Source: Candidatus Nanoarchaeia archaeon
GTDB lineage: Archaea; Nanobdellota; Nanobdellia; Woesearchaeales; ARS49
NCBI GenBank assembly: GCA_041488275.1
Contig: JBGPOY010000004.1
Location: forward strand, 795 to 64,794
Direction of reading: 5' to 3'
DNA: 64,000 nt
A program made the position numbers and the translations under genes. The notes beneath the pieces are model-generated. The model did not search any database. It was not told the DNA's origin and was given only the letters and a program-made list of their open reading frames with translations. Below, piece after piece: positions 2,440 through 10,950 of this stretch; the first letter of the stretch is position 1, and each line of letters opens with the position of its first letter.

Positions 2440-3930
2440 GTGCAATTCAAAAAAAGTCAGAGTGCATTCATTCTCGCGCTCTTGATTCTGTCCGTATCTG
2501 TTGTTGCACAAATGTCGCCGACAACCGGTCCCGACTGCACTTCAGCAACTGCTGCAGGTAACGTTGAGATTTGTAATGGCATCGATGATAATTGTAACGG
2601 CGCAATCGATGAGCGTCTTGGAAATACGGAGTGCGGAACAGGACCGTGCGCTACGTCAGTGCCTGCGTGTGTGAAAGGCATCCCCCAATCGTGTACACCG
2701 AAGCCCGCGCCAAGCTCCTATGAGATTTGCGGAAACGGCATTGATGACAATTGTAATGGACAAGTCGATGAGAACTGTCAGCCTGCCTGCACCTCAAATT
2801 GGGTATGGTCGGCGTGGAGCGCATGCTCTTCAGGTGTACAAACAAGAACCACCTCTGATGCAAACAATTGCCCGACCTCGATAGGGCGTCCCGCAGATCA
2901 AACACAAACGTGCAATGCTACCTGTACTCCTGTCACGCAAACGTGCAGTGTTGGTGTTGGCGCATGTGCTCGTTCAGGCACGCAAACGCAGTCGTGCGTG
3001 AATGGCGTGCTCGGTGCTTTGAGTGTGTGCTCTGCAACGGCAGGAGCTCCCGCCGCCGAAACCTGTGGTAATCATGTTGATGATAACTGCAATGGGCAGG
3101 TCGACGAGGGCTGCCTGTTCCAGAATGGTCAGCCGTGCCAAGTGTCGTCGCAGTGTTATTCGCAAAACTGTGCGAACGGAATCTGTGCGTCCTATCAGGA
3201 TTGTATCACCTCGTGCACCTCGCTGGCGCAGAATTGTGTCAGCTACAGTTGCGGATGGTTTGGATGGTCGACCTGCCAGCAGTGCACCCCGTACCAAAAC
3301 CTCAATACGGCATGTGCACAAGGGTGCAATCAACCGTGTACTCCGGTGTCGCAGCCGTGTAGCGTGGGTGTTGGCGCATGTGCCCGTTCAGGTACGCAAA
3401 CGCAATCGTGCGTGAATGGCGTCCTTGGTGCCCCCGGTGCGTGTTCTGCAACTCCCGGTACTCCTATTGCTGAAATATGCGGCAACGCGATTGACGATAA
3501 CTGCGACGGCCAAATCGACGAAGGTTGCTCAACGCCACCCTGCACACAGGGAACGACCACGTGCGGTCTCGGCGCATGCCAAAATACGATTCAGAATTGC
3601 ATCAACGGCGTTCCGCAAACCTGCACTCCCGGTCCGACGTACCCGAGCCCCGAGATTTGCAGCAACGGGATCGATGAAAATTGTAACGGCCAAATCGATG
3701 AAGGTTGCCTGTTCCAGAATGGCCATTCTTGTCAAGTGTCGTCGCAGTGTTATTCGCAAAACTGTGCGAACGGCATTTGCGGCTCCTATCAGGAGTGCAT
3801 CAACTCATGCACCTCGCTGGCGCAGAATTGTGTCAGCTACAGTTGCGGGTGGTTTGGATGGTCAACCTGCCAGCAGTGCAACTCGTACCCGTCTCTGAAT
3901 CAAGCGTGCGCGCTCTCCTGCAATCCTTGA
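2440..3930 (+). CDS. Secreted Cys-rich repeat protein with five MopE-type metal-binding motifs (C-N-G-x-D-D-N-C-N-G-x-x-D-E) and a TSP1-like WSxWS motif
   Basis: GTG start at 2440 is preceded by GGTGA and a TATA at ~2397. Signal peptide VQFKKSQSAFILALLILSVSVVAQ. Five copies of EICGNGIDDNCNGQVDE-like motifs. WVWSAWSACSSGVQTR motif. Extreme Cys content. Confidence 0.7.
   Translation: MQFKKSQSAFILALLILSVSVVAQMSPTTGPDCTSATAAGNVEICNGIDDNCNGAIDERLGNTECGTGPCATSVPACVKGIPQSCTPKPAPSSYEICGNGIDDNCNGQVDENCQPACTSNWVWSAWSACSSGVQTRTTSDANNCPTSIGRPADQTQTCNATCTPVTQTCSVGVGACARSGTQTQSCVNGVLGALSVCSATAGAPAAETCGNHVDDNCNGQVDEGCLFQNGQPCQVSSQCYSQNCANGICASYQDCITSCTSLAQNCVSYSCGWFGWSTCQQCTPYQNLNTACAQGCNQPCTPVSQPCSVGVGACARSGTQTQSCVNGVLGAPGACSATPGTPIAEICGNAIDDNCDGQIDEGCSTPPCTQGTTTCGLGACQNTIQNCINGVPQTCTPGPTYPSPEICSNGIDENCNGQIDEGCLFQNGHSCQVSSQCYSQNCANGICGSYQECINSCTSLAQNCVSYSCGWFGWSTCQQCNSYPSLNQACALSCNP
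2923..3927 (+). repeat. Imperfect intragenic tandem duplication: unit A (CTPVTQTCSVGVGACARSGTQTQSCVNGVLGA), a MopE motif, and unit B (GCLFQNG..CQVSSQCYSQNCANGIC..CGWFGWSTCQQC)
   Basis: Copies begin at 2923 and 3337 (unit A) and at 3112 and 3706 (unit B). DNA identity between copies is near-perfect (e.g. tgcctgttccagaatgg...gtgtcgtcgcagtgttattcgcaaaactgtgcgaacgg). The second copy carries an extra ~180-bp insert. Confidence 0.75.
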
Positions 3931-3970
3931 ACTCTCTAGTCTACCCGCTATATTCTTTTAAAATTGGTTC

Positions 3971-5491
3971 GTGCTTTCTCGTCGTATGAGAGAGTTGGTG
4001 GATGCCGAAACGTGGCAGCTGGTGCAGGACCGATTAGCCGCGGCGCTCGGGCTTCCGGTCGTCACGGTAGACTTGTCCGGCCACATCGAGTTCCGTTCCG
4101 GAACGTTCCCGTTTTTCTGCGAGATTGTGATGAAGCGCGGCGGACAGTTTTGCACGCTCTGCCGGCAGGACTGGGCGGCAAATGCCTCAGGCGTGTATCA
4201 GGATTCTTGCCATGCAGGGCTGTACTCCATCACCGTTCCTGTCTTGATTGACGACAAAAAAGTGGGCGCCTTGATGGTCGAAGGCATCCGCGCAGACCAG
4301 CGCCTCCAAGAAGCCGCGGTCAAAGCCGCCTCGCTCATCGGCGTCGGCTCGGAAGAGCTCGTGGACGAAATCCCGAACGTGCCGATGCAGACTCCTGCGC
4401 AGCTTGCGACCATTCGCCAGCTGCTCGAGACGTTCGCGTCAACCTTGCCGCGCATCGCGTCCGACCGCAGCAAAGACAAGCGCGAAGCGCGTCAGCTGAC
4501 AGTCTTGCTGGACTTTCTCAACCAGCTCGGCGCGACGTTTGATCTTCCGAAAATCCTGAGCACGACGCTCAACTTTTGCATGAAGACATTCACGCTCGAG
4601 GACTGCAGCGTGCGGTACGGCGACGAAACTGCTCGCTTCGCGTACTTGGAAAAGCGCGATGACGCGTGCAAACCGTTAGAAGAAGCGCTCTGGGCGCACT
4701 TACAGAACAGCAAGATGGCGCTGTTTCTCGCGGACGTGCGGGATGACTTCCTGCTGGGACAGGTGGCGGGCATCGCGAACAGCGTACTTGCCGTCCCGAT
4801 TTTGTGGCAGGGCGTGTGCAAGGGCATGCTCGTGCTGTACGGCAAAGTCGGCGAAGAACTGAGAGCGTACGAGGACGTCGTTCGCGCGCTCGCGCAGCGC
4901 ATCGAAGCCGCGCTTGCCGCCGCGCGCAAGTACAAGGAAGCGCAGGAAACAGCCGTCACGGACAAGCTGACCGGATTGTACAACAAGCACTACTTTACCG
5001 AGACGTTCAAGAACGAAGTCGTGCGCGCCTCCAAATTCAAGCGTCCGACGTCGCTTATCATTTTTGACGTGGACAACTTCAAGAGCTACAACGACACGTA
5101 CGGGCATCCGGAAGGCGACAAACTGCTTTCCGAACTCGGACGCGTGCTGCGCGAGACCGTCGGCCAGATTGACACGTCCTGCCGTTACGGCGGAGAGGAG
5201 TTTGTCGTTATTCTGCCGGAAACCAAGCCCGAGCACGCGATGGCGGTCTCCGAGCGCATTCGTTCCGCAATCGATACAACAAATTTCCCGAACCGCAAGA
5301 CCACCATCAGTTTGGGAGTCATCACATGCATGAATTCGTCGGCATCCGCGGACTTTATGCTGAAGGAAGCCGACCGCGCGCTCTACAAGAGCAAGCACCT
5401 GGGCAAAAACCGTTCCACAGGATTCATCATCGTGGACAAGAACTTGGGAACCATTGATGCAAGCGAAGCGAGCGGACAGAAAGTCGTCTAG
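3971..5491 (+). CDS. Signal-transduction protein: PocR ligand-sensing domain + GAF domain + GGDEF diguanylate-cyclase domain (active-site GGEEF)
   Basis: N-terminal PocR-like region with conserved Cys/Gly spacing (FFCEIVMKRGGQFCTLCRQ...CHAGLYSITVPV). Central GAF-like segment. C-terminal GGDEF domain: LTGLYNKHYF...FDVDNFKSYNDTYGHPEGD...RYGGEEFVVILPET. Confidence 0.8.
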   Translation: MLSRRMRELVDAETWQLVQDRLAAALGLPVVTVDLSGHIEFRSGTFPFFCEIVMKRGGQFCTLCRQDWAANASGVYQDSCHAGLYSITVPVLIDDKKVGALMVEGIRADQRLQEAAVKAASLIGVGSEELVDEIPNVPMQTPAQLATIRQLLETFASTLPRIASDRSKDKREARQLTVLLDFLNQLGATFDLPKILSTTLNFCMKTFTLEDCSVRYGDETARFAYLEKRDDACKPLEEALWAHLQNSKMALFLADVRDDFLLGQVAGIANSVLAVPILWQGVCKGMLVLYGKVGEELRAYEDVVRALAQRIEAALAAARKYKEAQETAVTDKLTGLYNKHYFTETFKNEVVRASKFKRPTSLIIFDVDNFKSYNDTYGHPEGDKLLSELGRVLRETVGQIDTSCRYGGEEFVVILPETKPEHAMAVSERIRSAIDTTNFPNRKTTISLGVITCMNSSASADFMLKEADRALYKSKHLGKNRSTGFIIVDKNLGTIDASEASGQKVV

Positions 5492-6685
5492 TTACTTGCT
5501 CGTCAGAATTTCTACTACGTCGCGGTGTTTCAGGAGCGTGTCGCGCCCGATTTTGCGCTTCGTCTTCACGTCCATCGCGGCGACGAAGTTCTTCGCCAAG
5601 TCCGTGTGAATCTTGTTCGCAAAGTCGAGCGCCGTTGAGCCGGGAGGCAGCAGGAAGCAGTCGGGCAGGACGTTGCCGTCCTTGTCTGCGAGCTTGTTGA
5701 CGCCGCCGGGGAAGATGGCCATGTACTTGAGCAGTTCAAACACGGCGGTGTTGAGGACGGTTTGCGCGCCGGTACCGCCGTACTTGTGCAGGACGGACTT
5801 GCGGATGTATTCGAGCGCGTCCTTTTGCTTCGGGTTGACGTTGCCTTTGATAGTAAAATCCTTGTCGCCGGGCAGATAGTCGATAAGTCCTGCCTTTGCC
5901 GCTGTCCTGAGCGTCAGTTCTGCTTCGGCGCTGATAGGAATAATGGTGAGCTGCGGGAACTCCTTCCGGATGCGCGTAAGGTTTGCTTCCGCGCTCGGCA
6001 GGTCCATTTTGTTTGCCGCGATAATCATCGGTTTGCTGCGCGCGCGCACGGTGACGGCAATCTCTTTCAATTGCTCGTCCGTCCATTCCGCCGGGCGCTC
6101 GAGCGGGAGCTTGAGTTTCTTGAGGATTTCTTCCACGAGTGATTCGGAGATGTTCAGTCCGGAGAGCTGCTTGGCAAGCGCTTTCACGACTTGCCCTTTT
6201 TCCTGTTGGAGTGTGCGCGACGTCTTTTCCCAGCCTTTCTTGATGATGCCGAACACCCACATATCGAGTTCGACTTCGAGGAAACGAATGTCGTTCGCGG
6301 GGTCGTACGTTCCCGGCGTAACGGATTCGCCTTTTTCGTTCGTGGAACCGGCCATGTCGACCACGTGCACGAACGCGTCCGCCTGCCGCAGGCCGTCCAA
6401 GAACGTGAGCCCCATGCCTTTTCCGAGGTGGGCGCCCGGCACGAGTCCGGCGACGTCCATCACTTCAACGGGAACGAAGCGCTGGTGGTTGGCGCACATG
6501 CCGAAACGCGGGTTGCATTGGACGTTGAAGTCCTTGTCCACGCAGTCGATGCGCACGAACGCGAACGCCTTGTTCGGGTCGATGGTAGCGAAAGGATAGT
6601 TCGCGATCAAGACATCAACGAGCGTGATGCTCTTGAAGAACGTGCTCTTGCCGACGTTCGCCTTGCCCACGATGCCGATTAACAT
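5492..6685 (-). CDS. ychF: YchF/OLA1-type Obg-family GTPase/ATPase with C-terminal TGS domain
   Basis: MLIGIVGKANVGKSTFFKSIT (P-loop), ANYPFATIDPN, and a C-terminal TGS-like segment. Start set at ATG 6685, which has a reverse TATA (ttatataa) about 25 bp upstream. Confidence 0.8.
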   Translation of the reverse strand: MLIGIVGKANVGKSTFFKSITLVDVLIANYPFATIDPNKAFAFVRIDCVDKDFNVQCNPRFGMCANHQRFVPVEVMDVAGLVPGAHLGKGMGLTFLDGLRQADAFVHVVDMAGSTNEKGESVTPGTYDPANDIRFLEVELDMWVFGIIKKGWEKTSRTLQQEKGQVVKALAKQLSGLNISESLVEEILKKLKLPLERPAEWTDEQLKEIAVTVRARSKPMIIAANKMDLPSAEANLTRIRKEFPQLTIIPISAEAELTLRTAAKAGLIDYLPGDKDFTIKGNVNPKQKDALEYIRKSVLHKYGGTGAQTVLNTAVFELLKYMAIFPGGVNKLADKDGNVLPDCFLLPPGSTALDFANKIHTDLAKNFVAAMDVKTKRKIGRDTLLKHRDVVEILTSK

Positions 6686-6870
6686 GCGTCTTTTGCGCTT
6701 CTGCTCGTTATATAAGCTTTCCTCTGGCAAGAGGAAGCGTCGCGCTCGGCCCGCCACCTGTCCTTGCTCTCCGTGCCCCTGCAGTATGGTCGTGCGTCGT
6801 GGCGGAAAGGTGCTGAGTTGAACGCTGTTTCTGCCTCGCGCTCCAAGTCGCTTCCTCTTGCCTTCCTTAC

Positions 6871-6890
6871 CTTCACGAAACCCTTATAAA
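6871..6890 (+). promoter_or_regulatory. BRE/TATA promoter (cttcacgaaacccttataaa) for the three-paralog operon, leaderless spacing to ATG 6913
   Basis: TATA 'cttataaa' ends 22 bp before the ATG. The same 20-mer (one mismatch) occurs upstream of the deoxyhypusine synthase gene at 21812-21832. Confidence 0.55.
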
Positions 6891-6912
6891 TGCGGCTCGC
6901 CCGAAAGGAGTC

Positions 6913-7512
6913 ATGGCCGAACAAGAGGTGACGTACGGCGGCAAGGAGGCCGACGTCAAGTTTACGGTCGTCTACAAGGACGTGTATTCGTGGGGTTACT
7001 TCTACAAGCTCTTGCACGAGTGGCTGCTGGACAACAAGTACTGCGGCGCCGATGAGGACTTCAAGGAAATCCTGTACGAACAGCTCGAAAAACCGTTCGG
7101 CACCGAAATCTGGCTGCGCTGGCGGCTCGTGAAGAAAGGCGAAGCAGTGGGACCGTATCATGAATTGTTCCAGTACTCCGTTGACGTCGACTTTCACATT
7201 CTCGGACAGAAAGAAGTCGAGGTCGTGACCGGCGGCAAGAAGTACAAGGCGGACAAAGGCGAAGTCGAAGTCGGCGTGGCAGCCCGAGTCGACATCGACC
7301 CGGAAAAGAAAATCAAGAATCACTGGCTCGGCCAGCACTTCGAGGACTTCATCTTCCGAACGTTCCTGAAACGCAAGGTCAAGCAGCACAAGAAACTCAT
7401 CACGTATGATATGCAGCGCTTTCAGGAAGCCATCAAGACGTATCTGAAACTGGAAACGTTCCTCCCCGAGCGCGAGCTCGCGGAATACTACCAGAAGCGG
7501 GACCAGAGCTAA
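6913..7512 (+). CDS. Uncharacterised protein, paralog 1 of a tandem triplet (199 aa)
   Basis: Shares the N-terminal motif Y.G.FS..GL..L.EWLLD..Y, a beta-rich core (EVEVVTGGKKYKADKGEVEV) and a C-terminal helix (F..F+.FL...V) with the two downstream ORFs. Confidence 0.6.
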   Translation: MAEQEVTYGGKEADVKFTVVYKDVYSWGYFYKLLHEWLLDNKYCGADEDFKEILYEQLEKPFGTEIWLRWRLVKKGEAVGPYHELFQYSVDVDFHILGQKEVEVVTGGKKYKADKGEVEVGVAARVDIDPEKKIKNHWLGQHFEDFIFRTFLKRKVKQHKKLITYDMQRFQEAIKTYLKLETFLPERELAEYYQKRDQS

Positions 7513-7513
7513 A

Positions 7514-8026
7514 ATGGGCGACGAAAAGACCGCGGTCGTTCCGCCAGCCGTCACGCGGTATTACGGTCCGTTCAGCTTCCGTGGATTGCTCACCGCCGTC
7601 CGCGACGGGATGAAGCGCGAAGGGTACGATGAAGTCGACGAAAACAGCTACAAGCACAAGGTCGGAGGCGAAGGCACGGACGTCGAAGTCAAGCTGGAAT
7701 CCGACCGCAAACAGAATGATTACGTTAAGTTTAAAATGAACGTTGAGATCAAGATCAGCGAAATGAAGGACGTGGAAGTCGTGCACGAGGGCGAAAAGAT
7801 GAAGATGCAGCACGGCCGCGTGCAGGCGACCGTCACCGAAACCATCGAGCTTGACTACCAGAAAGGGTTTGAGTCCAGCCCGTTCCTGCTCGGATTGCGC
7901 AAGTTTTATCACGACTTCCTCATCAAGACCAAGATTGAGGAAGACTACTGGTACGCCTCGCACCAACGCGTGCAGCGGCTCTCCCAATTGATTCGCCAGA
8001 CGCTGGGGTTCGAAATCCATGGCTGA
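7514..8026 (+). CDS. Uncharacterised protein, paralog 2 of the tandem triplet (170 aa)
   Basis: Starts 2 nt after the paralog-1 stop. Same motif layout (YYGPFSFRGLLTAV..GY; DVEVKLESDRK..; FLLGLRKFYHDFL). Confidence 0.6.
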   Translation: MGDEKTAVVPPAVTRYYGPFSFRGLLTAVRDGMKREGYDEVDENSYKHKVGGEGTDVEVKLESDRKQNDYVKFKMNVEIKISEMKDVEVVHEGEKMKMQHGRVQATVTETIELDYQKGFESSPFLLGLRKFYHDFLIKTKIEEDYWYASHQRVQRLSQLIRQTLGFEIHG

Positions 8027-8528
8027 ACAGGAAATCATCGTGGACAAGGAACGCATCGAGTACGAAGGCATCTTTTCTGTCGCGGGACTCTACCGTTTGA
8101 TTGACGAATGGCTGCTCGACAAGGGTTATTACCGAAAGGAACCGCAGCACATCGAGAGCGCAAAGCCCGAAGGCAAGTTCGTGGAAATGTCGCTGGAACC
8201 GTCCAAGACGCTCACGGACTACGCGCTCAGCATGCTCAAGCTGCGCATCCAGCTCAGCAACATCCGCGACGTGAGCGTCGAAACCGGCGACGGCACGAAG
8301 CAGCGCCTGAACCAAGGCAAGGTCCTCATCACGCTGAGCGGCATCCTCGTCACCGATTACGAAGGCAAGTGGGAAGGCAAGCCGCTGTTCCTCTTCATCC
8401 GCACCATCTACGACAAATTCTTGTACAAGCCCATGACCGGTGGATTTCAGGACACGGTTAGGAGAGATGCCGACCAGCTGAAGAACGTCATTTCCGGTTT
8501 CTTGAACCTGCACCGCTACACGACATAA
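8019..8528 (+). CDS. Uncharacterised protein, paralog 3 of the tandem triplet (169 aa)
   Basis: Overlaps paralog 2 by 8 nt. YEGIFSVAGLYRLIDEWLLDKGYY matches paralog 1 closely. Confidence 0.6.
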   Translation: MAEQEIIVDKERIEYEGIFSVAGLYRLIDEWLLDKGYYRKEPQHIESAKPEGKFVEMSLEPSKTLTDYALSMLKLRIQLSNIRDVSVETGDGTKQRLNQGKVLITLSGILVTDYEGKWEGKPLFLFIRTIYDKFLYKPMTGGFQDTVRRDADQLKNVISGFLNLHRYTT

Positions 8529-8565
8529 GCTCGTGCAGAACGCGCGGCTAAAAAATTCTTGCTGA

Positions 8566-9324
8566 TTACAGCCTGATTTTTCTGAAGAAATAGGCGCCAA
8601 TCAGAACGATAGCGACGCAAAATCCGACCATCGCTCCGAAACTGATGAGCGGCGAAATCTGAGACGTACCGAGCAAACCGTACCGAATGCCTTCAACGCC
8701 GTAGGTGAGCGGGTCAAGGTAGCTGAGGGTGCGCAGCCACGCGGGCGCACCGGAGAGCGGGAACAATGCGCCGGACAGGAAAAAGAGTGGGAACGTGATA
8801 AAGTTCATCACGAGCGGAAATCCCTGCATATCGCTCATGCGCGAGCCGAACGCCGTACCCATTGCCGTAAACGTCAGCCCGATAAGGAGCATGAAACCGA
8901 CCGCGATGAAGAATCCCGTGACGCTCGAGATGGACGCGCCAAAGATGAGTGAAATCGCGAGCAGGATGAATCCTTGAATGACTGCAGTGGTCGCGCCGCC
9001 GAGCGTGTGTCCGAGCATGATGCTGGTTCTCGAAACGGGCGCGACAAGCGTTTCCTTGAGGAATCCGAACTGCTTGTCCCAGATGATTTGGATGCCGGAA
9101 AACATCGACGTGAAGAGGACGGTCATCGCGATGATGCCGGGCGCGATGAATGCGAGATAATTGTGCTGCATTCCCGGAACGCTCACCGAGTTCAGTCCGG
9201 TGCCGATGATGACGAGGAAAAAGAACGGCATGCCGATGCTGCCGATGATTCTGCTGGGTGAACGGATGTAGCGCGTCATGGTGCGCAGCCAGAGGGTTAC
9301 GATTGCTTCCATCATCGTCGCCAC
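8566..9324 (-). CDS. ABC-2 family transporter permease
   Basis: Six predicted transmembrane segments in an ABC-2 permease-like pattern. Overlaps the upstream ATPase gene, indicating an operon. Confidence 0.8.
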   Translation of the reverse strand: MATMMEAIVTLWLRTMTRYIRSPSRIIGSIGMPFFFLVIIGTGLNSVSVPGMQHNYLAFIAPGIIAMTVLFTSMFSGIQIIWDKQFGFLKETLVAPVSRTSIMLGHTLGGATTAVIQGFILLAISLIFGASISSVTGFFIAVGFMLLIGLTFTAMGTAFGSRMSDMQGFPLVMNFITFPLFFLSGALFPLSGAPAWLRTLSYLDPLTYGVEGIRYGLLGTSQISPLISFGAMVGFCVAIVLIGAYFFRKIRL

Positions 9325-10298
9325 GCTCTGCGTACGAGGCGCATGGTTTCTTTCCCGCCGGATTCTTCCTCGCGGATGGTCTTGCCTGTGACATGCAGGA
9401 AGACGTCTTCCAGCGTAGGCGTATGGACGCTGATGTGCTCAAGCGTGATGTTGGATTCCTGCGCGAGCTTGACCAAGTCGGAGATGCGGTACGCGGGTCG
9501 GTCGGCCTTGATGGACAGCGTGCCGTCATGCTGCTTCACGCCGGACGACCATTTCGCGCGCGCAAGCTCTTGGACGAGCTCATTCTGCTTCTTCGTTTTC
9601 ACCGAAATGAAGCCGCCGCCGACCGAGCGTTTGAGGTTTTCTGACGTGTCGAGCGCGATGATTTTGCCGTGGTCGATGATGGCGATGCGGTCGCACAAGC
9701 GGTCGGCTTCCTCCATATAGTGTGTCGTGAGAATGATGGTGACTTTCTTGTTCTTGTTGATGGCGCTGATGTACTCCCACAAATGGTTGCGCGTTTGCGG
9801 GTCCAGCCCGATAGTGGGTTCGTCAAGGAACAGCACGCGGGGCTCGTGGAGTAGTCCGCGCGCGATTTCCAAGCGGCGGCGCATGCCTCCTGAGTACGTG
9901 CGCACCAGGTCCTTCTGGCGGTCTTCGAGTCCGACGAGTTTCAGGAGTTCCGCGATGCGTTTCTTGCGCTCGGCGACGGGCACGCTGTAGAGGCGTCCGT
10001 GGATGTCGAGATTTTCGTAGCCGGTGAGCTCGTCGTCGAGGCTTTGGTCCTGAAAGACGACGCCGATGGACTTGCGCACCTCATTCTGCTGGGTGAGAAT
10101 GTTGAACCCGTTCACGGTCGCGCTGCCCGAGGTCGGCTGGCTCAGCGTGGCAAGCATCGAAATGGTGGTGGTCTTGCCCGCGCCGTTCGGACCGAGAAAA
10201 CCGAAGATTTCACCCTCGTTCACGTCGAAGCTGACGTCGTCAACGGCGGTGAAGTTGCCGAACTTCTTCGTCAGCTTGTTCAGGGAAATCATCGCCAT
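9312..10298 (-). CDS. ABC transporter ATP-binding protein (DrrA-like) with a C-terminal extension
   Basis: Walker A GPNGAGKTTTISML, signature LSGGMRRRL, Walker B VLFLDEPT. Confidence 0.85.
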   Translation of the reverse strand: MAMISLNKLTKKFGNFTAVDDVSFDVNEGEIFGFLGPNGAGKTTTISMLATLSQPTSGSATVNGFNILTQQNEVRKSIGVVFQDQSLDDELTGYENLDIHGRLYSVPVAERKKRIAELLKLVGLEDRQKDLVRTYSGGMRRRLEIARGLLHEPRVLFLDEPTIGLDPQTRNHLWEYISAINKNKKVTIILTTHYMEEADRLCDRIAIIDHGKIIALDTSENLKRSVGGGFISVKTKKQNELVQELARAKWSSGVKQHDGTLSIKADRPAYRISDLVKLAQESNITLEHISVHTPTLEDVFLHVTGKTIREEESGGKETMRLVRRAWRR

Positions 10299-10491: not shown

Positions 10492-10950
10492 ATGACGGTG
10501 AAGGACGACTACGAAAAGCTGCGCAAGCGGTTCAATCTGCCGTCGTTCGACGAGATTGATGCCGAGTTTGACCTCGCGGGAATCGAGGAAGGCAATCTCC
10601 TGCGCGAAATCCGGCATCGCGTGCACGAACGCCTCGAGTTCGGCGCGGGCATTATCGACACGATTTGCCAGCCCGACGCCAACAACATGCGTTCCATGAT
10701 GGAGTGCGGCTTCTTCAACGACCAGGAAAAGACCAAGGCGTTTCATCTTTCGCAGCGCTTGATGGTATTGTGGCGCAGTTTGACCGAAGCCGAACTGCTC
10801 AACGACGAAAAGTCCGACGTCGAAGCAATCAAACTCGCGTTCAAGGAGTGGAAAGAGATGAAAGAGCCGCTCCTCGCGTTCATCCGCAAAATGAAGGAGT
10901 CTTGGAAGCACGCCGCGCCGGGCAGGGAAGATCTCGGCTATCTCGGATGA
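10492..10950 (+). CDS. Hypothetical protein (152 aa), translationally coupled (ATGA) to adk
   Basis: Clean ORF with a TATA (tttttaaatc) about 45 bp upstream. No recognisable family. Confidence 0.5.
   Translation: MTVKDDYEKLRKRFNLPSFDEIDAEFDLAGIEEGNLLREIRHRVHERLEFGAGIIDTICQPDANNMRSMMECGFFNDQEKTKAFHLSQRLMVLWRSLTEAELLNDEKSDVEAIKLAFKEWKEMKEPLLAFIRKMKESWKHAAPGREDLGYLG

Follow-up and report, generated by a model that had tools for sequence, protein, structure and literature searches.

Three paralogous genes and their promoter

The window, by which we mean the whole 64,000-nucleotide stretch analyzed, carries three consecutive open reading frames on its forward strand, termed here paralogs A (6913 to 7512, 199 aa), B (7514 to 8026, 170 aa), and C (8019 to 8528, 169 aa). 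These positions had been given in a preliminary description of this DNA and agree with the public gene calls for the same contig. The gap between A and B, described there as 2 nt, is 1 nt, as the TAA stop codon of A ends at 7512 and the ATG of B begins at 7514. The 8-nt overlap of B and C was described correctly, with the TGA stop codon of B (8024 to 8026) falling within the start of C, ATGGCTGA (8019 to 8026).

The three proteins are homologous to one another, as had been proposed. Pairwise BLASTP similarities are significant (summarized as E values of 1e-6 to 7e-16), and they are not only compositional, since the composition-adjusted search is significant for all three pairs: A and B at an E value of 6e-6 over 68 aa, A and C at 1e-6 over the full length with 24% identity, and B and C at 7e-16 over 136 aa with 29% identity. 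The shared sequence motifs quoted earlier are roughly right, but the complete N-terminal motif fits C alone and is partial in A and B. All three proteins are very hydrophilic (GRAVY of −0.4 to −0.7). When the family hidden Markov model (HMM) was run on the 64-kb window, the A, B, and C reading frames were the exclusive matches. Two unannotated minus-strand genes in L002 were considered as family members and ruled out, having no match to the family HMM.

The genes form one closely packed unit without an internal promoter, preceded on the plus strand by a promoter at 6876 to 6891 with a BRE-like element, cgaaaccc (6876 to 6883), and a TATA box, TTATAAAT (6884 to 6891). The strong consensus promoter noted earlier is thus present, but its type is archaeal BRE/TATA; a bacterial sigma-70 reading was rejected, as no promoter of that type was found. 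The TATA element lies 29 to 30 nt ahead of the ATG of A, and its position is conserved: 38 of 87 nonredundant relatives have the same cgAAAnccTTATAAAT element at −30/−31 from the start of A. Archaeal TATA boxes are centered at about −26/−27 relative to the start, and given this established geometry, the spacing implies that the operon mRNA would be leaderless.

Extent of the family

A profile search of metagenomes recovered 2,078 family clusters (50% identity), of which 1,609 have E values of ≤1e-10. Family members were found in 121 species genomes, which are labeled nearly all as Woesearchaeota, Nanoarchaeota, or Nanoarchaeia. That the proteins could not earlier be assigned to a known family agrees with our searches of curated libraries and of PDB sequences. 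A, B, and C had no match in Pfam (even at E ≤ 10), NCBIfam, PHROGs, or PADLOC. When 148 diverse members were run against Pfam, no match recurred, and no family was hit by more than 2 of them. Searches of PDB sequences with two family profiles returned only noise (E values of 0.05 to 0.6; FMD subunit D, NikR, VapW, and OFOR). One single-copy member had a subthreshold match to RtcR (43 residues, E value of 0.0011), which we treated as chance. The label "hemerythrin superfamily protein" given to B by JGI was also set aside: B has no match in Pfam or NCBIfam, and it aligns along its length with A and C, whose models are alpha/beta.

Foldseek found nothing at E ≤ 0.001 among the viral structures of BFVD, and nothing was found by a pattern scan of viral contigs or by tblastn against phage and plasmid collections. 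We rejected a mobile-element or defense origin because these viral contig, phage, and plasmid searches were empty. No description of the family came up in literature searches on archaeal Ygr210 and on uncharacterized DPANN families. We place A, B, and C in a large family, so far unannotated, of small and probably cytoplasmic alpha/beta proteins from DPANN archaea (Woesearchaeota/Nanoarchaeota).

Gene arrangements and promoters in related loci

We classified 156 nonredundant loci by the adjacency of family genes within each locus, so that an A gene counted as missing from a B-C locus is one that does not stand beside B-C. The triplet A-B-C occurs in 69 loci, and there are also 31 loci with B-C, 25 with a solitary A, and 22 with a solitary C-like gene. 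In a neighbor-joining analysis, A, B, and C each form their own orthologous clade, and single-copy family members exist.

The order A-B-C is invariant in all 69 triplet loci. B always precedes C, and the two are spaced by ≤10 nt or overlap in 83 of 100 loci; for A and B, a spacing of ≤10 nt is seen in just 34 of 74. Conserved gene order with translational coupling therefore holds for B-C and in part for A-B. Triplets packed like the one in the window, with gaps of ≤10 nt and no internal promoter, were found in 30 related loci. Promoter positions follow the spacing. B has its own TATA element at −30 in 25 of 28 triplet loci with an A-B gap of 11 to 60 nt, in 8 of 8 with a gap of >60 nt, and in 20 of the 31 B-C loci, but in none of 30 loci where the gap is ≤10 nt. 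No TATA element of its own was found for C in any locus examined in this promoter scan. A thus makes up a transcription unit of its own in about half of the triplets.

Divergence of the three paralogs

C is the slowest evolving of the three, with 24 homologs at 51 to 100% identity, and it is closest to the solitary members (distance of 1.4 versus 2.0 for A and B). Its conserved polar and aromatic residues are E46, K53, D67-Y68, the TDYE.RWE.KP stretch, R127, and D131-K132, and its conserved segment reads TDYE.RWE.KP...R..YDK. Residues common to C and the solitary members have been lost from B and A. B evolves fastest, as judged from HMM classification and distances, and a word-indexed search reached just 4 homologs of it. 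Several of the residues that do not vary in C and the solitary members are missing from it, namely, K53, D67, W117, E118, P121, and R127 (C numbering). A, for which 22 close homologs were found, has an insertion of its own behind helix 1. Its conserved C-terminal tail (YLKLETFLPERELAEYYQKRDQS) is predicted to be disordered (pLDDT of <50), and 97% of A-type proteins retain the proline of this tail. A mean-field DCA of 476 sequences gave a signal dominated by subfamily and gap artifacts and was discarded.

Predicted fold

AlphaFold2 (AF2) models predict the same fold for A (pLDDT of 83.5, pTM of 0.77) and C (pLDDT of 83.6, pTM of 0.76), with the order beta-alpha-beta4-alpha-alpha in A; the order of secondary-structure elements guessed in the preliminary description was broadly right. 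By DSSP, the A model has strands at residues 15 to 25, 51 to 60, 63 to 74, 86 to 106, and 109 to 128 and helices at 27 to 40, 138 to 151, and 153 to 179. The C model has a strand at 3 to 19, a helix at 21 to 35, four meander strands, and then a C-terminal helix. This last helix comprises 46 residues with a PxTGG break, and the equivalent region of A folds back as two helices. Hydrophobic and polar residues alternate along the strands, a pattern that points to one exposed sheet face. As a tentative reading, the models suggest an open, two-layer arrangement in which the helices cover the hydrophobic face of the sheet. Residues 111 to 140 of C are its most conserved segment and also the low-confidence part of the monomer model, a combination that an interface or a ligand site would be expected to show.

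Genomic neighbors

Upstream of A in the window, on the minus strand, lies a gene for a YchF/Ygr210-type GTPase with MMR_HSR1, YGR210-like_G4, and TGS domains (5492 to 6685; NCBIfam PRK09602, 5e-163; public call of 397 aa). It has its own BRE/TATA at 6708 to 6721, minus strand, 30 nt before its ATG at 6685. Of 57 triplet loci, 51 have this GTPase gene upstream of A in divergent orientation; of 30 loci with only B-C, none has it there. In about 19 loci, A is preceded at a distance of 13 to 65 nt by a PHP+PHP_C gene, and in 13 of these loci A is solitary. A gene for a CBS and zinc-ribbon protein is directly upstream in about 19 of 26 retrieved loci with a solitary C-like gene and in 11 of 30 B-C loci. 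The recurring partners comprise the PHP phosphoesterase, the CBS pair, the TGS-containing GTPase, GGDEF, and DHH. The proposed neighborhood comparison thus found recurrent GTPase, PHP, and CBS genes, but the set varies with the arrangement, with GTPase and PHP accompanying A and CBS accompanying B-C and solitary genes, and gives no single consistent functional link. As these genomes are tiny and highly syntenic, the conservation of neighbors may in part reflect shared ancestry, not shared function.

Interpretation

The reading that we prefer, at a probability of roughly 45%, is that C retains an ancestral site, B is an obligate degenerate partner of C, and A is a looser third subunit. The family would have begun as a single gene that was then duplicated, along a route from a single gene to a coupled B-C pair and on to the A-B-C operon; the existence of single-copy members makes it probable that the ancestor was homo-oligomeric or monomeric. 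C would keep the ancestral, strongly conserved polar and aromatic site. B, encoded just before C and translationally coupled to it, appears to have lost most of that site and would serve as the degenerate partner in a B-C hetero-oligomer. Judged from gene order, coupling, and residue conservation, B and C are probably partners in one complex. Single-copy members, a conserved C, faster and degenerate B and A, a fixed gene order, and coupled translation are what is seen where a duplicated homo-oligomer has become a hetero-oligomer, although the oligomeric state here is deduced. A would be the third paralog, elsewhere placed under its own promoter or at a separate site, typically after a PHP gene and divergent from a GTPase gene. 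In the lineage of the window, it seems to have been joined with B-C into one leaderless tricistronic operon under a consensus BRE/TATA. Its presence in one operon with B-C suggests that A is either part of the B-C complex, to which its conserved disordered LPERE tail might attach it, or active in the same process.

The tight spacing of all three genes had been taken to indicate a 1:1:1 complex. Such a strict heterotrimer, with A, B, and C all obligate subunits held together, e.g., by their C-terminal helices, would suit the promoterless packing with gaps of ≤10 nt in the window and 30 related loci, the invariant order, and the separate orthologous clades, which argue that all three paralogs are retained under selection. 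Across the loci, however, coupling is conserved for B-C only (≤10 nt in 83 of 100), and A, a separate unit of transcription in about half of the triplets, stands alone in 25 loci and is absent beside B-C in 31. The conserved neighbors of A (PHP and GTPase) also differ from those of B-C (CBS), and a long three-stranded coiled coil appears unlikely in the models because of the PxTGG break in the C helix and the fold-back helices of A. We therefore consider an obligate heterotrimer somewhat unlikely.

An earlier suggestion was a resemblance to the SRPBCC/Bet v 1 fold, from which it could be argued that A, B, and C are three independent divergent helix-grip (SRPBCC/Bet v 1/START-like) carriers of different hydrophobic or nucleotide-derived ligands, adjacent merely by tandem duplication. 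DPANN archaea are not known to make the lipids that they scavenge from their host, and scavenged host lipids could be among such ligands. The proteins do share with this superfamily a small soluble alpha/beta domain of about 160 to 200 aa and the succession of an N-terminal strand, a helix, a long-stranded antiparallel meander, and one or more C-terminal helices on the hydrophobic sheet face. They have many conserved aromatic residues, and for both models the best Foldseek E values among PDB matches are to PYL/Bet v 1/START proteins (3oji at 3.4e-4 and 1.1e-3; further matches were 3put, 5n8q, 3ie5, and 4ytx). The likeness goes no further than the order of helices and strands: TM scores are 0.15 to 0.30 with rmsd of 12 to 18 Å, and an hhalign comparison of the family profile with a manually entered Bet v 1 sequence gave a probability of 0.13%. 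None of the 148 diverse members matched an SRPBCC Pfam model, nor did A, B, or C at E ≤ 10. The models, with the order beta-alpha-beta4-alpha(-alpha), did not superpose at a TM of >0.5 on the helix-grip order beta-alpha-alpha-beta6-alpha, and they have 5 strands and one N-terminal helix, compared with 7 and two in Bet v 1. SRPBCC proteins usually come from a single gene and are monomers or homodimers, whereas this family is encoded as coupled paralogs, and the B-C coupling and the loss of the site in B argue for partnership over independent carriers. The hydrophilicity of the proteins also speaks against carriers of this kind, which we regard as unlikely.

For both models, Foldseek gave its highest homology probabilities (0.95 to 1.00) and best TM scores (0.31 to 0.37, rmsd of 8 to 10 Å) to Cyt delta-endotoxin/volvatoxin A2 (PF01338), which is of similar size and has long antiparallel strands flanked by helices. 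The long amphipathic beta-hairpin of the family, with strands of about 20 residues, recalls the Cyt strands proposed to insert into membranes, so that the proteins might be membrane active and perturb the membranes of the host or of the episymbiont itself. We find this highly improbable, as TM stays below 0.4, neither Pfam nor PDB gives a sequence match to the Cyt family, strand amphipathicity suggests a two-layer fold and not the three layers of Cyt, and there is no signal peptide or sign of secretion or toxicity; the neighbors are cytoplasmic housekeeping or nucleotide-related genes. With TM scores of ≤0.37 to the nearest PDB neighbors, membership in either the Bet v 1/START or the Cyt/volvatoxin families is not supported. 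The core order beta-alpha-beta4-alpha is identical to that of TBP-like fold domains, including the DUF1795/Eag (SciW) chaperones, which in the models is a resemblance of fold class, not homology. Foldseek matches were weak (4jhy, TBP-like, E value of 0.05; SciW, E values of 0.03 to 0.07, TM of about 0.3), TBP itself was unmatched, the strands and C-terminal helices of the family are much longer, and nothing in the family points to binding of nucleic acids or transmembrane helices. Members of the TBP-like fold are commonly (pseudo)dimers that join their sheets, and the DUF1795/Eag chaperones act as dimers, which would fit an obligate B-C pair.

As to what the proposed assembly of C, B, and A would do, the recurring partners (PHP, the CBS pair, the TGS GTPase, GGDEF, and DHH) lead us to infer a binding or adaptor module in nucleotide or RNA-phosphate metabolism or signaling, not a known enzyme class. 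We identified no catalytic motif, ligand, or cavity for A, B, or C. A more specific proposal is a new type of hetero-oligomeric receptor/adaptor specific to DPANN archaea, in which C would bind a nucleotide-derived signal or an RNA 5′/3′-phosphate end at the invariant TDYE.RWE.KP/R/DK site, B would be a degenerate scaffold, and the conserved LPERE tail of A would connect the assembly with the Ygr210/YchF-type GTPase and a TrpH-like PHP phosphoesterase. In this detail, the proposal is quite unlikely; an alternative version has the complex carry host-derived lipids.

DPANN archaea have tiny genomes in which a large share of the genes is without annotation. The family described here comprises >2,000 clusters at 50% identity, and since 2 to 3 copies are kept in genomes of about 1 Mb under a consensus promoter, it is probably important to the cells of these archaea. 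We offer here the definition of the family, its three orthologous groups, a likely evolutionary route, and the candidate partners, namely, the PHP phosphoesterase, the CBS protein, and the Ygr210-type GTPase. Should the association with this GTPase have no functional basis, A, B, and C would add one more well-defined conserved hypothetical family; if it has one, they would offer a way into the Obg-family Ygr210 GTPase, which is uncharacterized in archaea and fungi.

A conserved family of paralogs in DPANN archaea

When analyzing the window, we found A (positions 6913 to 7512, 199 amino acids [aa]), B (7514 to 8026, 170 aa), and C (8019 to 8528, 169 aa) on the forward strand by ORF calling, exactly where the preliminary description had placed them, and the public gene calls on the contig concur. 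The 8-nt overlap of B and C (ATGGCTGA) was also as described, but the 2-nt gap reported between A and B reads 1 nt in the sequence. The proposed paralogy is real and not compositional, since composition-adjusted BLASTP gave E values of 6e-6 (A-B), 1e-6 (A-C, full length), and 7e-16 (B-C), and a family HMM selects these three and no other ORFs in the 64-kb window. Opposite the triplet, whose coding region is 56% GC, there are three long ORFs on the reverse strand spanning 6679 to 8600 (6679 to 7554, 291 aa; 7433 to 8071, 212 aa; and 7923 to 8600, 225 aa), which are probably by-products of GC-rich coding sequence.

As the preliminary description held, the proteins can be assigned to no known family: searches of Pfam (E ≤ 10), NCBIfam, PHROGs, and PADLOC returned nothing meaningful for A, B, or C, and PDB sequences gave no significant match to two family profiles. 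The JGI label "hemerythrin superfamily protein" on B was unsupported by any search. When 148 diverse members were scanned singly against Pfam, each Pfam family was matched by at most two of them. One single-copy member (locus L161, 4917 to 5429) matched RtcR, a CARF-containing regulator, over 43 residues (E value of 0.0011, 18.9 bits against a cutoff of 23.1); since the remaining members lack it, we attribute this subthreshold match to chance.

Word-indexed searches yielded 24 C-type, 4 B-type, and 22 A-type relatives, the named ones being "Candidatus Woesearchaeota." An exhaustive profile search over 1.84 billion cluster representatives gave 2,078 clusters at E ≤ 1e-3, including 1,609 at E ≤ 1e-10, with member lengths of 152 to 223 aa among the best 150. 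Scanning one genome per species, we found the family in 121 genomes, labeled almost all as Woesearchaeota, Nanoarchaeota, or Nanoarchaeia; the exceptions were one Aenigmatarchaeota, one "Binatia bacterium" bin, and many "uncultured Methanosarcinales" TPA bins. The Binatia record is a 3.8-kb contig (L009, DATILO010000068.1) bearing an archaeal triplet whose C is 80% identical to that of the window, and dozens of TPA bins titled "uncultured Methanosarcinales archaeon" show Woesearchaeota-type (DPANN-type) synteny; both are probably misbinned or mislabeled. No member was found in the viral contigs, phage genomes, and plasmids searched. In DPANN archaea, this is a real, conserved, previously unannotated protein family, and its division into paralogs is clear.

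Gene arrangement and promoters

We investigated the arrangement of the genes in 156 nonredundant loci. A-B-C was found in 69, B-C only in 31, solitary A in 25, a solitary undifferentiated (C-like) member in 22, and A-B with a contig end cutting the locus in 5; gene order was invariably A, B, C on a single strand. B and C overlap or lie within 10 nt in 83 of 100 loci (median, 2 nt), and A and B lie within 10 nt in only 34 of 74, with 11 to 60 nt in another 31.

The strong consensus promoter of the preliminary description proved to be a conserved archaeal BRE/TATA element of the cgAAAnccTTATAAAT type (6876 to 6891, forward strand); no sigma-70-type promoter was found at the operon. In 38 of 87 distinct upstream regions, the TATA box of this element begins 30 to 31 nt 5' of the A start codon. 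Archaeal TATA boxes are centered about 26 to 27 nt 5' of the transcription start, which implies that the mRNA of the window operon is leaderless. B has its own TATA box at the same distance in 25 of 28 triplet loci with an A-B gap of 11 to 60 nt, all 8 with a longer gap, and 20 of 31 B-C-only loci, but in none of the 30 with a gap of ≤10 nt, as in the window; upstream regions of C show no TATA peak like that of A or B. This pattern points to B-C as an invariant bicistronic unit, with A standing apart as its own unit in about half of the lineages; A, B, and C of the window are predicted to form one tricistronic leaderless operon. A strict 1:1:1 A-B-C trimer would suit such an operon, less so the loci where B-C or A stands without the other.

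Neighboring genes

In 51 of 57 triplet loci, A is flanked upstream by a divergently transcribed YchF/Ygr210-type GTPase gene (NCBIfam PRK09602, 5e-163), a gene seen in that position in 0 of 30 B-C-only loci. Its mechanical ORF in the window begins at GTG 6757; a BRE/TATA element (GAAAGC TTATATAA, reverse strand, 6708 to 6721) 30 nt 5' of ATG 6685, together with the 397-aa public gene call, favors 6685 as the actual start, on a leaderless mRNA. A PHP+PHP_C phosphoesterase gene precedes A by 13 to 65 nt, in the same orientation, in about 19 loci (13 with a solitary A); where the GTPase gene is also present, the PHP gene lies between it and A. The PHP product shows weak similarity to 3',5'-nucleoside bisphosphate phosphatases. 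Of the 26 solitary C-like loci retrieved, about 19 have a CBS-pair and Zn-ribbon gene immediately before the family member, and 11 of 30 B-C loci have one in the same position. The 64-kb window has no PHP or CBS homolog. The B-C pair and its CBS gene are preceded in about 10 B-C-only loci by a conserved gene (2932 to 4800 in locus L055; 3023 to 4912 in L053) whose product of about 620 aa contains a Pol-beta/NTP_transf_2 nucleotidyltransferase domain.

Further upstream, a GGDEF gene is kept in 38 of 57 triplet loci; in the window, it encodes a PocR-GAF-GGDEF diguanylate cyclase-type protein (3971 to 5491, forward strand; TIGR00254 at 2e-49) with a GGEEF motif. GGDEF signaling is, to our knowledge, rare in archaea, and cyclic-dinucleotide signaling in Woesearchaeota may therefore merit separate study. 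About 19 triplet loci have an upstream DHH/DHHA1 phosphoesterase gene, often near the GGDEF gene. Downstream of the triplet, a gene for a 152-aa protein without Pfam or NCBIfam match (10492 to 10950, forward strand) is conserved in 21 related loci; its stop overlaps the adenylate kinase start (10947) by 4 nt, and it represents another unannotated family, apparently coupled to adk. The intervening ABC-2 permease and DrrA-type ATPase pair (8566 to 10298, reverse strand) looks like a lineage-specific insertion, as it is absent there in a close relative (L001).

Because the genomes are small and highly syntenic, part of this neighbor conservation may be inherited gene order without a functional link; the short same-strand PHP-to-A and CBS-to-member distances are stronger hints of one.

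Conserved residues and predicted fold

A proteins cluster in one clade and B proteins in another, with a single orthologous group holding the B proteins of both triplets and B-C pairs. C is slow-evolving, and solitary members are nearest to it (distance of 1.4, versus 2.0 to A or B). Residues near-invariant in C and solitary members (E46, K53, D67-Y68, T111-D112-Y113-E114, R116-W117-E118, K120-P121, R127, and D131-K132, among others; C numbering) are degenerate in B and mostly so in A, while W31, E41, G52, G91, K93, K95, D112, K158, and L161, among others, are conserved across the whole family. A-type proteins have a conserved C-terminal tail (YLKLETYLPERE..F..KR; Pro 97%), whose disorder in the AlphaFold2 (AF2) model would be typical of a docking peptide.

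The AF2 models of A (pLDDT 83.5, pTM 0.77) and C (pLDDT 83.6, pTM 0.76) share the same order of elements: a strand at the N terminus, a helix, a meander of four strands (two of them about 20 residues long), and C-terminal helices. These are two helices in A (138 to 151 and 153 to 179) and a single 46-residue helix in C; low confidence around residues 111 to 140 and a PxTGG in midhelix make a helix-turn-helix, as in A, the more likely prediction for C. Conservation in C peaks in this segment, where the monomer model is least confident, a combination that an interface or ligand site would be expected to show. Hydrophobic and polar residues alternate in the long strands, which indicates a two-layer fold with one polar sheet face exposed.

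The suggested SRPBCC/Bet v 1 resemblance, on which the proteins might be independent helix-grip ligand carriers, is seen in Foldseek, where Bet v 1/PYL/START proteins gave the best PDB E values for both models (3.4e-4 to 1e-2), but not in superposition (TM scores of only 0.15 to 0.30, root mean square deviation of 12 to 18 Å). Cyt-like membrane-active proteins are a further alternative, with Foldseek probabilities of 0.95 to 1.00 for volvatoxin A2 and Cyt toxins, again with both models, but TM scores of only 0.31 to 0.37.

What fits best is a single gene that gave rise to a coupled B-C pair, with A joining later in an operon. After duplication, C would have retained the ancestral site and B would have become a degenerate obligate partner; A would be a third paralog acting with or near the PHP phosphoesterase and the Ygr210-type GTPase, joined to B-C in one operon in the lineage of the window. 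A hetero-oligomeric core of the family is likely. The recurring partners (PHP, CBS, TGS-GTPase, GGDEF, DHH, and adenylate kinase) all deal with nucleotides or phosphoesters, and our working guess is thus a complex with a binding or adaptor role in the metabolism of nucleotides or RNA phosphates or in signaling that involves them. For now the family stands as a "conserved hypothetical," well defined and with partners that can be tested, but not yet as a new mechanism.
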